Made by a program: the position numbers and the translations under genes. The notes beneath the pieces are model-generated. The model was not told the origin of the DNA. It was given only the letters and a program-made list of their open reading frames with translations, and searched no databases. Positions 2 to 50,748 of a DNA stretch of 55,558 nt are shown piece by piece. Origin of the DNA: Candidatus Omnitrophota bacterium (lineage in GTDB: Bacteria > Omnitrophota > Gorgyraeia > JABMRG01); the NCBI GenBank assembly GCA_043823785.1, contig JBDRAM010000132.1:1-55558 (forward strand), written 5' to 3'. How positions within the stretch are numbered: the stretch's first letter is position 1; each line of letters opens with the position of its first letter.

Positions 2-658
2 ATGAAAAAAAAGATAGTTATATGGGGTGCTTCAGGGCATGCCCTGGTAGTGTCCGATATAATCCGCCTGCGGGGCGAATACGAGATAGCGGGGTTTCTG
101 GATAATTTAAATCCAGGGCGCCATAAGAGCGAATTCTGCGGCTCAACCATTTTAGGAGGGCCTGAAGAGCTGGATGATTTCAAAAAGAAGGGTATCAGCT
201 ATATTATATTCGGTTTTGGCGATAATAATGCGAGGATTAGGCTGTCCAGGGTTGCTAAAGAAAAAGGGATGAAACTTGCTGCCGCCATACACCCCAAAGC
301 GGTAATTGCCGGAGATGTTTTAATAGGATGCGGGTCTGTTGTGTGCGCCGGGACGGTTGTTAACCCGGGGTCTAGTATCGGTGAGAACACTATTATTAAT
401 ACATCTGCCAGTATTGACCACGAGTGCTCTATAGGCGAAGGTGCGCACATAGGCCCTGGGGTCTGCCTTGGAGGAAAGGTAAAGATAGGAAAGGCCGCAT
501 GGATCTGCATCGGGTCAACTGTAAAAGATGGCATAAGCGTCGGAGCGGGTTCTATGATCGGCGCAGGCTCTCTGGTGCTCGATGATATTCCTTCAGGAGT
601 GATCGCGTATGGAGCTCCTGCAAAGGTAGTAAAGGAGGTAGAAGCAGATGCCGATTAA
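2..658 (+). CDS. Hexapeptide-repeat sugar acetyltransferase (NeuD/PglD-like)
   Basis: 218-aa ORF. N-terminal Rossmann-like KIVIWGASGHALVV is followed by left-handed beta-helix hexapeptide repeats (IGCGSVV, IGENTII, IGEGAHIGPG, IGAGSLV). It overlaps the downstream aminotransferase gene by 11 nt. Confidence 0.8.
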   Translation: MKKKIVIWGASGHALVVSDIIRLRGEYEIAGFLDNLNPGRHKSEFCGSTILGGPEELDDFKKKGISYIIFGFGDNNARIRLSRVAKEKGMKLAAAIHPKAVIAGDVLIGCGSVVCAGTVVNPGSSIGENTIINTSASIDHECSIGEGAHIGPGVCLGGKVKIGKAAWICIGSTVKDGISVGAGSMIGAGSLVLDDIPSGVIAYGAPAKVVKEVEADAD

Positions 659-48477: not shown

Positions 48478-48796
48478 GTTACAGCAGACAAGATTAAGAG
48501 TCGGAGATACGGTAGAGGCAGAGGTATTTAAGATCACAAGTTTCGGAGCCTTTGTTAAACTTTCTGATGGGAAAAGAGCGCTTATACATATATCGCAGGT
48601 AGCGGATAATTTTGTCAAGAATATAAATGACTACCTTAAGTTGGGCGATGTAGTAAAGGCACGTATTTTAAATATAGAAGCGGATAAGATAGACCTTACT
48701 CTTAAGAAGCCAAAAGATGAGACGGTCTCTTATCCTAAGGGCAAAGAATTCAAGTCTACTTTTGAAGATAAGCTGGAAGGTTTTTTGAACGAATAG
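48452..48796 (+). CDS. S1 RNA-binding domain protein
   Basis: 114 aa (an alternative start at ATG 48470 overlaps the ftsB stop). S1 fold block GDTVEAEVFKITSFGAFVKLSDGKRALIHISQV. Confidence 0.8.
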   Translation: MTAKKLMSELQQTRLRVGDTVEAEVFKITSFGAFVKLSDGKRALIHISQVADNFVKNINDYLKLGDVVKARILNIEADKIDLTLKKPKDETVSYPKGKEFKSTFEDKLEGFLNE

Positions 48797-48904
48797 TAGG
48801 AGCGGCCTCTCCCTAGCTGTGCTCGCCTCGCGCCGAACGGCGCTCGGCGCCGGAGGCGGGACCTCTCACCGAGGGATCCCGAACGAACGTGAGGGGCTGG
48901 CCGC
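48795..48904 (+). repeat. GC-rich stop-abutting palindromic element, copy 3, with large nested structure
   Basis: AGTAGGAGCGGCCTCTCCC starts in the stop codon of the S1 gene. The outer stem is GCGGCC(48802-07)/GGCCGC(48899-904). Nested hairpins are CGCCTC[GCGCC-GAAC-GGCGC]GAGGCG and CCTCTCAC/GTGAGGGG. Confidence 0.75.
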
Positions 48905-48980
48905 GAATTAGAACTTAAGCATTGATGTTTGACATGCAACATACGACGCGGGGTGGAGCAGCCCGGTAGCTCGCAAGGCT

Positions 48981-49621
48981 CAATGGATACAAAGCTCAAA
49001 GCGGATATTGCAGAATCGTCTGTAGTAACTGAACTTCTAAAAAGAGGATTCAGTGTGCTAAGACCTGTTGGAGATCGGCTTTCTTATGATATAGGGATCG
49101 ATCTTAAGGGCAAATTTGTCCGTATTCAGGTCAAGAGCGCTTGGTTCAACGAAAGAGATAAATGCTACGTTGTAGATGCACGTAGAACCAAGACAAACAG
49201 ACGGCGCATGATCAGAAAGCGTTATAAGGCTGATGATTTCGATTTTGCAATTATCCATATAGCTGACTTAAATGTGTTCTATGTTATGCCTCTGACAGTA
49301 TTTTCTAATTATAGAAGCACTGTTACGCTAATAGAATCAAGCAAAAGGCAACGAAAACCTAAGTCAGCATGCTACAGAGAGCGATGGGATTTATTGTCCA
49401 AGGGCCCATTATCCGGTAACGGGTAATGAAAACCTGTCAAATTCGGTGAAACCCTCGATATAAAAATCAGGGCAATACCGAGCCAAGTCCGCACAGGCGG
49501 AAAGGTGTAGAGACTAGTTGGCAGGAATCCTAAGACATTAGGATTATGGTATAGTCCAGACTACGAACATGCGGTACTTTTATGCGCAGTGCAGCATGGC
49601 AGTGAAAACTGTAGTAGTAAG
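48981..49621 (+). mobile_element. Group I intron (IC3-like core) with a homing-endonuclease ORF
   Basis: The 5' exon ends in U and the intron ends in G. The core at 49430-49621 contains CCTGTCAAATTCGGTGAAACC, CCGAGCCAAG, GAAAGGTGTAGAGACTAG and CCTAAG, closely like the Azoarcus tRNA-Ile intron as I recall it. P3 is CCTGTC/GGCAGG and P7 is GACTA/TAGTC. Confidence 0.85.
48983..49426 (+). CDS. PD-(D/E)XK homing endonuclease (I-Ssp6803I-like)
   Basis: 147 aa from ATG 48983 (the track ORF 48929 reads through the tRNA exon). The block AESSVVTELLKRGFSVLRPVGDRLSYDIGIDLKGKFVRIQVKS gives a D...D...QVK nuclease core. It lies inside the tRNA-Met intron. Confidence 0.8.
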   Translation: MDTKLKADIAESSVVTELLKRGFSVLRPVGDRLSYDIGIDLKGKFVRIQVKSAWFNERDKCYVVDARRTKTNRRRMIRKRYKADDFDFAIIHIADLNVFYVMPLTVFSNYRSTVTLIESSKRQRKPKSACYRERWDLLSKGPLSGNG

Positions 49622-49674
49622 CATAACCTTGAGGTCAGAGGTTCAAATCCTCTCCCCGCTACCATTAGCGCTTC

Positions 49675-49755
49675 CGCAGTTACGGAACGAAGTGAACGTA
49701 ACTGCGAGAAACGACTTATGCCCCGTACCGGAGCGAAGCGACTGGTACGGGGCAT
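49675..49755 (+). repeat. Two consecutive hairpins with AGCRA-AGCRA-type loops
   Basis: The first is CGCAGTTACG-GAACGAAGTGAA-CGTAACTGCG (49675-49706). The second is ATGCCCCGTACCGG-AGCGAAGCGA-CTGGTACGGGGCAT (49718-49755). Confidence 0.85.
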
Positions 49756-49776
49756 GCTATTTGGAATACACCAAAA

Positions 49777-49808
49777 CCCTGAGCGCGAATACGTCTCGGG
49801 GTTTTTTG
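49777..49808 (+). terminator. Rho-independent terminator after tRNA-Met
   Basis: Stem CCCTGAG/CTCGGGG, loop CGCGAATACGT, then TTTTTT (49802-07). Confidence 0.7.
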
Positions 49809-49874
49809 TCAGAGGTTTCCCTCGGCCTTACAGGCCTCGGGACTACCTCGCCTAAGTAATATCAGGGCTCGGCA

Positions 49875-49896
49875 GCAAATCCTCTCCCTGCTATCA
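49875..49896 (+). repeat. Degenerate duplicate of the tRNA-Met 3' end
   Basis: GCAAATCCTCTCCCTGCTATCA compares with the tRNA 3' end TCAAATCCTCTCCCCGCTACCA (49643-49664), with 19 of 22 positions identical. Confidence 0.65.
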
Positions 49897-50049
49897 TAAA
49901 AAACCCCCCAAGCATGATAGCCCCTGAGGTTTTTATCTGCTATTTAAATTATTTACAATACTGGTAATTGTAATTGATTGTTATGATTAACTGATATAAA
50001 ATATACCTTAAGTGAGAATATTAAAATTTAGCATTTCTGAGGTAGCCAA

Positions 50050-50748
50050 ATGGCCTTAAGGCGGATTGATTTAGAATATATAAATGGGTGCATTTTTGAA
50101 ACCCTTGGTGAATTAAGCGGTAAGCATATGCTGGAATTGGGAAATCAGTATATAATAGAAGATTCCATACCTGAAAAAATAGGAAAGAAATATTTTAACA
50201 ATAGAGGCGTAAACCATGTTTCAGTTGATTTAAATGGGCTAGATGATGCTTTGAAGTTAGATCTATCTAAGCCCGAACAGTTTTTAATATGGCATAGTTA
50301 TTTTGATATAGTAACAAACTCTGGCACCAGCGAACATGTTGAGCCAAAATCCGGCCAATATAATTGCTTTCTTATTATCCACAATTGTCTTAAGGTAGGA
50401 GGCGTAGCCATCCATTTAATCCCTGATGCCAACGAACTTAAAGATAAAATGTGCTGGAAGGGGCATTGCAATAATTATTATTCTTGCGATTTCGTTAGAA
50501 TGCTGGCGAAAAACAATAACTACAAACTGATTTCATTAAAGATAATGGATGGATTAGTATGTTTTTGTCTGCAGAAGACGGAAGATGCGCCATTCATGGA
50601 AAATCGCAGGGAATTTCTAAAACATATAACAAGAAGAAGCGGAGGGGCAATTTATCCAGGGATTAATGACAGGGGGATATACGGGGTTAAGAGTTTTTTG
50701 GGTAAAATTAAAAGAAAGCTGATCCAGAAACCGATGAATGCAGGATAA
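50050..50748 (+). CDS. Putative class I SAM-dependent methyltransferase
   Basis: 232 aa. Motif-I-like HMLELGN, DIVTNSGTSEHV and LKVGGVAIHLIP. Confidence 0.45.
   Translation: MALRRIDLEYINGCIFETLGELSGKHMLELGNQYIIEDSIPEKIGKKYFNNRGVNHVSVDLNGLDDALKLDLSKPEQFLIWHSYFDIVTNSGTSEHVEPKSGQYNCFLIIHNCLKVGGVAIHLIPDANELKDKMCWKGHCNNYYSCDFVRMLAKNNNYKLISLKIMDGLVCFCLQKTEDAPFMENRREFLKHITRRSGGAIYPGINDRGIYGVKSFLGKIKRKLIQKPMNAG

Follow-up and report, generated by a model that had tools for sequence, protein, structure and literature searches.

What interrupts the anticodon loop of a tRNA-Met gene in an Omnitrophota genome, and is the interrupting element a working mobile intron? The question is raised by a 55,558-nucleotide stretch of Omnitrophota DNA, analysed as a whole and referred to here as the window. 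Sequence comparisons indicate that a chromosomal tRNA-fMet(CAU) gene is very probably interrupted after U33 by a mobile group I intron of the type known from the Synechocystis tRNA-fMet/I-Ssp6803I system. In the following we weigh the identity of the tRNA, the structure of the intron, the nature of its open reading frame (ORF) and the signs of mobility.

The initial annotation had joined two segments of the window into a 77-nt tRNA with a CAT anticodon, C1xU72, A11:U24 and two of three anticodon-stem G-C pairs, and had described the anticodon loop of this initiator-type tRNA-Met as split after U33. ARAGORN reproduces the tRNA: 48947-48980 (34 nt) and 49622-49664 (43 nt) together form 77 nt and are called tRNA-Met(cat). 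In intron mode, the program recovers the gene as split by 641 nt of intron, which it places between nucleotides 34 and 35 of the tRNA sequence, i.e., after U33, and the related loci agree with this placement. Default ARAGORN and the Rfam tRNA model both missed the split gene in the window. The gene is organised as follows:

48947..48980, forward strand: tRNA-fMet exon 1 (acceptor 5' strand, D arm and anticodon-stem 5' strand, to U33), from ARAGORN intron mode.
48981..49621, forward strand: group I intron of 641 nt, running from CAAUGG... to ...GUAGUAAG, with omega-G at 49621, from Rfam and ARAGORN intron mode.
49622..49664, forward strand: tRNA-fMet exon 2 (CAU anticodon to the encoded CCA end), from ARAGORN intron mode.

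For comparison, 58 homologous introns were assembled from the window and 57 related loci; the comparison sequences all come from MAGs or metagenome contigs, and errors of binning or naming may affect some of their phylum labels. Splice sites in the homologous loci were placed by the rule that a U precedes the intron and a G ends it, which gives GGCT before the intron, G at its end and CATAACC after it in the loci resolved; a few of these additionally yield spurious alternative placements. The GGCT boundary of exon 1 is identical across all resolved related loci. At many homologous loci, ARAGORN intron mode returned tRNA-Leu, Ser, Thr or Pro labels, which were rejected as artefacts of intron placement.

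The window cloverleaf combines C1xU72 and A11:U24 with an anticodon stem of C27-G43, A28-U42, A29-U41, G30-C40 and G31-C39. A tRNA with these features might not be an initiator, but an elongator tRNA-Met or a tRNA-Ile2 with a lysidine-modified CAU anticodon, the kind of gene that hosts the Azoarcus intron. Position 72 is U, versus A in E. coli, and of the three G:C pairs by which initiators are defined, the stem has only two (A29:U41, G30:C40 and G31:C39 at 29:41, 30:40 and 31:39). However, besides the presence of the CAU anticodon, positions 1 and 72 are unpaired in 58/58 sequences, and 11:24 in the D stem is A-U in all 58. The deviating pair 29:41 alternates between G:C (19) and A:U (39) by compensatory change in orthologous loci at the same position, and au/GC/GC stems with A29:U41 are a documented natural variant of initiator tRNAs in alpha-proteobacteria and mycoplasmas (PMC5389676); for these two reasons, the tRNA is still filed as an initiator. 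For I-Ssp6803I, tRNA-fMet is the known target (PMC1995217). A non-initiator identity is thus regarded as highly improbable.

The intervening sequence had been proposed to be a group I intron, and this is borne out by the Rfam covariance model Intron_gpI (RF00028), which scores 68.2 bits at 49381-49574, above its gathering threshold of 50 (E=3e-15 when the whole window is searched, E=7.6e-17 in a local search), and by compensatory changes in the 58 sequences. A permissive Rfam search of 48700-50050 returned nothing besides the intron. The length of 641 nt, the start after U33 and the final G, all part of the original description, were recovered with ARAGORN; this omega-G (G49621) recurs in the resolved related loci, which end in G before CATAACC under the U/G splice-site option. 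At the 5' splice site, U33 (48980) forms a U.G wobble with G49403, and this pair and the flanking C-G are invariant in 58/58 sequences. The guide sequence first given as GGCC at 49403-06 is right, and is extended here by G49402 to GGGCC. Every helix of the P3-P9 core, including the P3/P7 pseudoknot, forms in the window:

48977..48981, forward strand: P1 5' strand, exon G30 G31 C32 U33 plus intron C+1, pairing with 49402-06.
49402..49406, forward strand: P1 3' strand, the internal guide sequence GGGCC, from pairing across 58 sequences.
49407..49428, forward strand: P2 hairpin of 9 bp with a GUAA tetraloop, encoding the endonuclease's last six codons and stop, from compensatory changes.
49433..49556, forward strand: catalytic core (P3-P8), from the Rfam alignment and pair counts.
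49433-38/49520-25, forward strand: P3, 99.7% paired.
49442-48/49476-82, forward strand: P4, 99% paired.
49452-59/49466-72, forward strand: P5, 68% paired, the weakest helix in the comparison.
49483-84/49504-05 plus 49488-92/49497-501, forward strand: P6, 98-100% paired.
49512-16/49552-56, forward strand: P7 pseudoknot, 100% paired.
49526-33/49538-45, forward strand: P8, 85% paired.
49560..49618, forward strand: P9 domain (three helices), from pairing and covariation.
49560-64/49614-18, forward strand: P9 closing helix ACUAC/GUAGU, covarying with ACCAC/GUGGU (UA:33, CG:15, UG:10).
49568-72/49594-98, forward strand: P9 variable hairpin, from pairing across 58 sequences.
49599-603/49608-12, forward strand: P9 hairpin with a GAAA tetraloop, from pairing across 58 sequences.

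Over the 58 introns, 92.7% of cells are paired, compared with 31-44% for slid controls, and none of 500 shuffles reached the observed value; changes on both sides occur at 49 of the 69 pairs. Compensatory base changes support P2 (at 9/9 pairs), P3 and P5-P9, while 99% of cells are paired in P1 and 90-95% in the P9-domain helices (helices 10-12), again with compensatory changes. The window P1 comprises 5 bp only, which was counted against the main explanation, and an inspection by eye of the bases just 5' of the guide sequence revealed no convincing P10 pairing with the 3' exon CAUAAC. Rfam sets its first helix on a local hairpin at 49385-49408; this placement was rejected, as the ORF-less introns show that P1 is formed with the end of the exon, which lies about 420 nt upstream. 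GNRA tetraloops cap P2 (GUAA) and the last P9 hairpin (GAAA), and all the core strings quoted earlier for the 3' part (CAAATTCGGTGAAACC, CCGAGCCAAG, AAGGTGTAGAGACTAG and CCTAAG) are present. Subgroup IC3, characterised by a core of the Azoarcus/Anabaena type and by a compact architecture that has GNRA loops on P2 and P9 but lacks large peripheral domains, is a tentative assignment from the resemblance to the Azoarcus sequence. None of the reproduced sequence-level features is a chance match.

The two halves of the tRNA have been maintained together. Its helices are 95% paired overall in the 58 sequences, and the intron-spanning anticodon stem is paired in 58/58 (100%), with compensatory changes at 27:43, 28:42 and 29:41; selection therefore acts on the spliced product. 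Introns of this type in tRNAs reportedly rely on exon anticodon-stem pairing (work cited in PMC3984707). The stem also bears on the idea that the gene is a dead pseudogene or its ribozyme inactive, the function being supplied by a second, intact tRNA-fMet elsewhere. With 55 kb of genome visible, a further copy is possible, and default tRNA finders leave the present one unreported; yet all its tRNA and ribozyme helices are intact, the ribozyme core is conserved and covarying, and compensatory maintenance of a stem across an intron would not occur in pseudogenes. We give this idea practically no weight. For the interrupted gene as read here, it is plausible that self-splicing is essential for tRNA function.

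The ORF within the intron corresponds to one feature:

48983..49426, forward strand: homing endonuclease gene of the I-Ssp6803I family, 147 aa, PD-(D/E)XK, stop TAA at 49424-26, from PDB and Pfam.

The ORF opens 2 nt into the intron, and its product contains GDRLSYDIGID...IQVK. The earlier assignment of a 147-aa ORF of the I-Ssp6803I PD-(D/E)XK type at this place is confirmed by the I-Ssp6803I structure (PDB 2OST, E=7.3e-46, residues 2-141) and by Pfam PF11645 (PDDEXK_5; E=3e-41, 141.1 bits against a gathering score of 26.1), where residues 1-137 correspond to profile positions 1-137 of 138. An alignment that includes I-Ssp6803I has 52 invariant columns, among them GDR..YD and QVK, with 49% identity over the aligned length; D31, D36, Q49, V50 and K51 are invariant, and the assignment of catalytic residues in the ORF is presumptive. 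In the window and at 57 related loci alike, the ORF lies inside the intron. The protein is already named "group I intron-associated PD-(D/E)XK endonuclease" at NCBI. Gene callers extend the ORF backwards through the tRNA exon.

Codon-position entropies of the ORF are 0.66, 0.46 and 1.42 for the first, second and third positions, and the periodicity is lost at 49400-49423, the ORF 3' end that lies over P1'/P2. The ORF was thought to sit in the P1 loop, and the comparison upholds this: ORF-less relatives have a P1 loop of 4-8 nt at exactly the same position, with the homologous UGGGC(U/G) motif 4-8 nt after the splice site (about 40 nt in the Nostoc locus L080). From the P1 loop, the ORF runs on through P1' and P2, which encode its last codons and stop. 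Among the 58 intron-borne copies, 56 are intact, and a few relatives carry stop codons.

The host had been judged not to be cyanobacterial, correctly so: the gene order eno-ftsB-(S1)-tRNA-fMet recurs at about 50 loci, which mostly come from MAGs with an Omnitrophota label, and identifies the host as a member of this group. The eno products of the loci sharing this order are 59-84% identical (61-75% in full-length matches). The expectation that tRNA group I introns with an intact endonuclease are rare did not hold in current databases, which yielded 1,138 clusters of homologous proteins and 126 confirmed genome matches at species level. The latter are mostly Omnitrophota, and a few come from six other phylum-level groups; non-Omnitrophota copies occur in Bacteroidota, Patescibacteria, Melainabacteria, Margulisiibacteriota and Myxococcota/'Deltaproteobacteria', with a few in each.

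The distribution of these copies bears on mobility. Lateral transfer, inferred at first for the window intron itself, is supported between phyla in general, since copies from other phyla are interspersed among Omnitrophota copies in the endonuclease tree. The window copy, however, belongs to a large clade resident in Omnitrophota, at a conserved chromosomal locus and apart from the clade that unites cyanobacterial and Bacteroidota copies; nothing points to a cyanobacterial donor. Nor does anything speak for a phage as vector, since relatives of the endonuclease were not found on viral contigs.

An element that stays in place could be a resident, essentially immobile passenger which splices, but whose endonuclease has no homing drive and either is decaying or serves another role, e.g., as a splicing helper or a host-domesticated nuclease. 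Its presence in dozens of Omnitrophota at one and the same syntenic position would fit, as would the stop codons in some relatives and the positive correlation of host (eno) and endonuclease distances, which is partial only (rho 0.35, 1 of 2000 permutations). The same applies to 14 related loci, the window not among them, at which the tRNA-fMet intron is ORF-less and the endonuclease gene is free-standing; in 13 of the 14 this gene follows the tRNA at a distance of 57-1,100 nt, in L073 it is on the opposite strand, and these loci are polyphyletic in the endonuclease tree. On the other hand, the ORF is under strong purifying selection, is intact in nearly all copies and has retained all I-Ssp6803I motif residues. 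Moreover, intronless target alleles with the same anticodon stem coexist at the same syntenic locus in eight metagenome contigs, the endonuclease and anticodon-stem type of the window cluster with loci other than its eno-nearest neighbours, and the interspersed phyla argue in the same direction. An immobile passenger is improbable on this evidence, and we retain the mobile intron as the preferred reading.

Among known systems, the closest is the tRNA-fMet intron of Synechocystis sp. PCC 6803. It shares with the window the host gene and the endonuclease family (49% identity; 2OST E=7e-46). The sizes are nearly identical: 655 nt with a 150-aa I-Ssp6803I ORF in Synechocystis (PMC1995217), and 641 nt with 147 aa in the window. 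The window differs in its Omnitrophota host and in a tRNA with A29:U41 and U72, while the cyanobacterial Nostoc locus L080 has the same core and the same insertion site between U33 and C34. The Azoarcus tRNA-Ile(CAU) intron, the structural model ribozyme of subgroup IC3, is similarly compact, lies in a tRNA anticodon loop and has a GNRA loop on P2. In its sequence, J3/4-P4 (GUCAAAUUCGG.GAAACC), the P4'-P6 junction (CCGAGCCAAG) and J6/7-P7-P3' (AAGGUGUAGAGACUAG..GGCA) are near-identical to the window. In contrast to the window, it is about 200 nt long, has no ORF, occupies a different tRNA and has a shorter 3' end, whereas the window P9 domain is extended to three helices. A free-standing endonuclease, F-CphI, beside the intron-containing cyanophage psbA is said to have been described by Zeng, Bonocora and Shub in 2009 as 'collaborative homing'. 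The 14 related loci resemble that arrangement in having the endonuclease gene outside the intron, near the target gene; unlike it, the window gene is inside the intron, and a single endonuclease family shows both arrangements at the same tRNA target. Finally, an ancient, widely inherited bacterial group I intron also resides in a tRNA anticodon loop and reportedly uses exon anticodon-stem pairing (work cited in PMC3984707), but it occupies another tRNA and position, lacks an endonuclease gene and is mostly inherited vertically.

These features suggest the following course of events. Transcription of the tRNA-fMet gene would produce a precursor of roughly 720 nt, in which the 3' 220 nt of the intron would fold into a compact ribozyme core from P2 to P9, with GNRA tetraloops on P2 and the last P9 hairpin. 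The guide GGGCC (49402-06) would pair with exon G30-U33 and intron C+1 to form P1, placing the U33.G wobble at the splice site and leaving a P1 loop of roughly 420 nt that carries the 147-aa endonuclease gene. An external guanosine would then attack after U33, omega-G49621 would take its place in the G site, and ligation of the exons would restore the CU-CAU-AA anticodon loop in a 77-nt tRNA with an encoded CCA end. The predicted spliced junction joins GGCU to CAUAACC (in cDNA, AAGGCU to CAUAACCUUG).

The only Shine-Dalgarno-like purines available to the endonuclease ORF (AAGG) are part of the tRNA anticodon stem. Given their position and the start codon 2 nt inside the intron, translation probably takes place on unspliced RNA and competes with P1 formation; alternatively, the nearly leaderless excised intron may serve as template. 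Its homology to I-Ssp6803I predicts that the endonuclease cleaves tRNA-fMet alleles without an intron, in the pseudo-palindromic DNA of their anticodon stem-loop. The predicted intronless target site is GCTCGCAAGGCT/CATAACCTTGAGG (candidate target sequence GGTAGCTCGCAAGGCTCATAACCTTGAGGTCAGAGG; stem variant TCGGG/CCCGA), and repair would then copy the intron into the cleaved allele.

A promoter and terminator consensus scan detected no convincing sigma-70-like promoter upstream of the tRNA. Downstream of the tRNA lies a tentative end of the transcription unit, which the scan missed, probably because it accepts loops of up to 8 nt and this one has 11 nt:

49773..49811, forward strand: terminator-like hairpin and T run (inverted repeat 49773-83/49795-805, then TTTTTT).

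Taken by itself, the window element is a well-preserved, ordinary representative of a class already known, and it is a real and probably functional mobile intron. [quoted passage not shown] A literature search found no paper describing a tRNA-fMet intron with a PD-(D/E)XK endonuclease outside cyanobacteria. As standard tRNA finders miss the split gene, genomes of this kind would appear to have no initiator tRNA.

Since intron-plus, intron-minus and free-standing-endonuclease forms occur at one locus, the Omnitrophota tRNA-fMet gene offers a convenient natural setting in which to follow the homing cycle and the way in which introns capture endonuclease genes. A further reading, rather doubtful at present, is that the locus preserves, as a natural archive, the steps by which a mobile group I intron comes together and remodels the gene that hosts it. 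It is suggested by three observations: the same endonuclease lineage is found free-standing (14 loci) and captured in the P1 loop (window and 57 loci), intron-minus alleles persist at the same locus, and the A29:U41 versus G29:C41 variant is tied more closely to the endonuclease lineage than to the host marker. If this stem-variant pattern were due to co-conversion of the exons during homing, a selfish element would be spreading a change in the '3GC' signature across the phylum.

The initial annotation had proposed that an initiator-like tRNA-Met gene at 48947-49664 is interrupted by a group I intron encoding an endonuclease of the I-Ssp6803I type, and this finding is real and correctly identified. 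When the exons 48947-48980 and 49622-49664 are joined, the resulting 77 nt fold into a tRNA-Met with a CAT anticodon in ARAGORN, and the intron mode of the same program reproduces this joining by recovering a 641-nt intron after U33 from the genomic sequence. Run with default settings, ARAGORN lists tRNA-Phe and tRNA-Thr as the only tRNAs of the window, as does the tRNA model of Rfam; both miss the split gene, which thus escapes routine annotation. The Rfam Intron_gpI model scores 68.2 bits over 49381-49574 (E=3e-15), above its gathering score of 50, in agreement with the group I assignment. A full secondary structure was derived for the window, and its pairs were then counted in an alignment of 58 introns that contain the ORF.

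Helices of the intron in the window (5' strand / 3' strand)
P1: 48977-81 / 49402-06
P2: 49407-15 / 49420-28, with a GUAA loop
P3: 49433-38 / 49520-25
P4: 49442-48 / 49476-82
P5: 49452-59 / 49466-72
P6: 49483-84 / 49504-05 and 49488-92 / 49497-501
P7: 49512-16 / 49552-56
P8: 49526-33 / 49538-45
P9: 49560-64 / 49614-18, closing a pair of hairpins of which the second has a GAAA loop

In this alignment 92.7% of the cells are paired, versus 31-44% when the partners are slid by 1-3 columns, changes on both sides occur in 49 of 69 pairs, and none of 500 shuffles matches the observed pairing values. Compensatory changes are abundant in P2, P6a, P8 and P9, P4, P6 and P7 are nearly invariant, and P5 is the weakest helix (68% paired). 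The core motifs presumably agree with those of the Azoarcus IC3 ribozyme, and this agreement serves as a lead, not as a test. In relatives whose intron lacks an ORF and measures 202-244 nt, P1 is directly visible, since the exon end GGCU and the intron CA pair with UGGGC(U/G), and the loop between them has 4-8 nt (about 40 nt in the Nostoc locus L080). Because the guide sequence of the window (GGGCC, 49402-06) instead lies approximately 420 nt downstream, the P1 loop is where the ORF lies, as had been supposed from the window alone.

The ORF itself (48983-49426, 147 aa) matches the solved structure of I-Ssp6803I, 2OST, over residues 2-141 (E=7.3e-46) and the Pfam family PF11645 (PDDEXK_5) from end to end (141 bits, cutoff 26), and an alignment of the ORF, eight relatives and I-Ssp6803I contains 52 invariant columns, including the GDR..YD and QVK motifs, which confirms the assigned endonuclease type. 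The stop codon (49424-26) falls in the 3' strand of P2. Codon periodicity disappears over the final 24 nt of the coding sequence (entropies 0.81, 0.83 and 0.84), in contrast to the remainder (codon-position entropies 0.66, 0.46 and 1.42), which argues that RNA-structure constraint dominates where ORF and ribozyme overlap and that purifying selection on the protein dominates elsewhere. Among the intron-borne copies, 56 of 58 have an intact ORF. Decaying copies with in-frame stop codons in the endonuclease frame were seen at five loci (L019, L027, L043, L050 and L055), and L019 and L027 have kept the intron although the frame has stops. The endonuclease start codon lies 2-4 nt inside the intron in Omnitrophota copies versus approximately 25-30 nt in the Bacteroidota copies L065, L072 and L077 (columns 37-62 of alignment A2), a contrast that fits the AGG purines of the exon serving as a Shine-Dalgarno element in the former and not in the latter. 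Shine-Dalgarno initiation is largely absent from Bacteroidota.

The cloverleaf of the window bears out the initiator hallmarks noted initially, C1xU72 and A11:U24 with two of three G-C pairs: its anticodon stem reads C-G, A-U, A-U, G-C, G-C and thus follows the three-G:C initiator rule by two-thirds, A29:U41 breaking it. An au/GC/GC anticodon stem is a natural initiator variant of alpha-proteobacteria and some mycoplasmas (PMC5389676). Across the same 58 sequences the tRNA helices are 95% paired. The anticodon stem is 100% paired despite the approximately 640 nt that separate its strands in the DNA, and its pairs 27:43, 28:42 and 29:41 show compensatory changes; all 58 have an unpaired 1:72 and A:U at 11:24. 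This pairing and covariation across the intron, together with the conserved hallmarks, are strong evidence that splicing yields a functional initiator tRNA in these lineages. Unusually G+C-rich, hairpin-forming stretches flank the tRNA (48797-48905, 49675-49706 and 49718-49755) in a genome otherwise of 40-45% G+C, with a near-palindrome GCGCCGAACG/CGCTCGGCGC upstream and perfect 10- and 12-bp inverted repeats with CGAAG within their loops downstream. They gave no Rfam match, even at E<=1, and may be REP-like elements or processing signals.

The supposed rarity of such introns does not hold and is an artefact of older knowledge: a large protein collection contains 1,138 homologous clusters, the best 70-83% identical, and 126 confirmed loci came from a scan in which each GTDB species was represented by one genome; 80 of these were kept. 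The top protein matches with a named source are nearly all Candidatus Omnitrophota MAGs, and several already carry the NCBI name 'group I intron-associated PD-(D/E)XK endonuclease'. Most loci likewise carry an Omnitrophota label, others being Bacteroidota (Saprospiraceae, Lewinellaceae, Emticicia, Cytophagales), Patescibacteria, Melainabacteria, Margulisiibacteriota, Myxococcales/'Deltaproteobacteria' and a single Nostoc. Of the 80 loci, 70 have a split tRNA in ARAGORN's intron mode, placed either around the endonuclease gene or shortly before it. When a U before the intron and a G at its end are required, the 69 loci analysed on the plus strand give the junction GGCT|C(or T)...G|CATAACC, besides a few spurious alternative placements; the tRNA-Leu, Ser, Thr and Pro labels given by ARAGORN at some loci were rejected as artefacts of ambiguous intron placement. 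The order eno-ftsB-(S1 domain)-tRNA-fMet is common to the window and about 50 loci, with enolase (eno) 59-84% identical to that of the window (61-75% in full-length matches), which identifies the window as part of an Omnitrophota chromosome, in line with the host having been judged non-cyanobacterial. In MAGs labelled 'uncultured Planctomycetia/Planctomycetales' (L002, L004, L013-L015, L020, L022 and others) and 'Deltaproteobacteria MAG210' (L030), the enolase beside the tRNA locus is mostly about 60-72% identical to that of the window and ftsB is present in many, and several of the Planctomycetia-labelled MAGs have the window's gene order; these labels are probably inaccurate and the hosts Omnitrophota. 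In L068, a related Omnitrophota contig, a c-di-GMP-I riboswitch (155-251, minus strand; 60.9 bits), unrelated to the intron, precedes the tRNA locus by about 1.8 kb.

The intron is polymorphic in Omnitrophota and not fixed. A metagenome scan found the intronless junction GCTCGCAAGGCTCATAACCTTGAGG at at least 120 loci, and among the matches listed, eight have Omnitrophota eno-ftsB synteny and no endonuclease gene, so intron-minus alleles exist at the same locus.

Intronless syntenic metagenome contigs
L090, L099, L113, L120, L132, L149, L164, L188

These eight contigs share the CAAGG/CCTTG anticodon stem of the window, have an eno 66-69% identical and carry no endonuclease gene nearby. Pairwise distances of enolase and endonuclease correlate moderately (Spearman 0.35, reached by 1 of 2000 permutations), and the loci nearest to the window by enolase (L039, L042, L036) are not those nearest by endonuclease (L001, L003, L004). 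In a neighbour-joining tree, the endonuclease of the window falls within a large Omnitrophota clade, sequences labelled as other phyla are interspersed among Omnitrophota, and the cyanobacterial I-Ssp6803I and Nostoc proteins cluster with Bacteroidota copies. No endonuclease relative was found in viral contigs. Taken together with the stop codons, these observations fit a classical homing cycle in which the element is gained, spreads, decays and is lost, with long residence in Omnitrophota and occasional transfer between phyla. The lateral transfer proposed initially thus appears sound in its general form, and a cyanobacterial donor for the copy of the window is not indicated by these data. 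A review finds little evidence for horizontal movement of group I introns among bacterial species and names tRNA and rRNA genes as their preferred bacterial sites (PMC3984707).

The endonuclease gene is not always borne by the intron. Fourteen loci (L008, L039, L043, L048, L055, L060, L066, L067, L068, L070, L071, L073, L074 and L080) have an ORF-less tRNA-fMet intron, of 202-325 nt where resolved and about 195 nt in L073. The orthologous PD-(D/E)XK gene stands free in 13 of the 14, at a distance of 57-1,100 nt downstream from the tRNA, whereas L073 carries it on the opposite strand. At the Rfam gathering threshold, 12 of the 14 have one group I match upstream of the endonuclease gene, and L055 and L067 have none. 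The fourteen, which include Nostoc, Bacteroidota and Margulisiibacteriota, are polyphyletic in the tree of the endonuclease, and their arrangement resembles the proposed pathway of a free-standing endonuclease followed by intron capture. Between the tRNA (1939-2216) and the endonuclease gene (from 2273) of L043 lie a terminator-like hairpin and a TATAAT-like box. In L008 two genes (1503-2449) stand between tRNA and endonuclease gene, encoding, as judged by eye, a small helix-turn-helix-like protein (68 aa) and a 233-aa protein with an HNH-like motif (CQEC...FDHIIPFSKGG...HKKCN), and the pair may be a small mobile-element gene island.

Anticodon stems (window 48974-48978 / 49625-49629; A2 columns 29-33) occur as CAAGG, TCAGG, TCGGG, TTGGG and other types. 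The window's endonuclease-nearest loci share its A29:U41 stem, and its enolase-nearest loci have three-G:C stems. The correlation of stem type with distance is stronger for the endonuclease (rho 0.29, 0 of 2000 permutations) than for enolase, a single host marker (rho 0.16, 4 of 2000), which suggests that the variants track the endonuclease lineage. Possible explanations are exon co-conversion during homing, co-evolution of enzyme and target, or noise from the single host marker.

Many database versions of the endonuclease are 155-213 aa long, and the product called in the window has 157 aa. Gene callers probably carry the reading frame back across tRNA exon 1; the upstream-extended ORF of the window (48929-49426, 165 aa) illustrates this. 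Because of this extension and the failure of default detection, automated annotation of these genomes would give an over-long 'endonuclease' and no initiator tRNA.

We take Candidatus Velamenicoccus archaeovorus to be a member of the Omnitrophota. A group I intron has been published in its 23S rRNA (PMC13153191). Synechocystis PCC 6803 has a 655-nt tRNA-fMet intron whose 150-aa ORF is I-Ssp6803I, the first PD-(D/E)XK homing endonuclease described (PMC1995217). As a tetramer, this enzyme recognises a pseudo-palindromic site of 23 bp, and its close homologues were described in 2012 as generally cyanobacterial (PMC3384342). In literature on group I introns, tRNA and initiator tRNA, and Omnitrophota/Patescibacteria, we found no description of the element outside cyanobacteria, and within this literature the host phylum is new for the element class. 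The copy in the window is a well-preserved, probably active member of this known class; more novel than this copy is the comparative picture, in which endonuclease genes occur both free-standing and borne by the intron, intronless alleles coexist with them, and variants of the anticodon stem appear to track the endonuclease.
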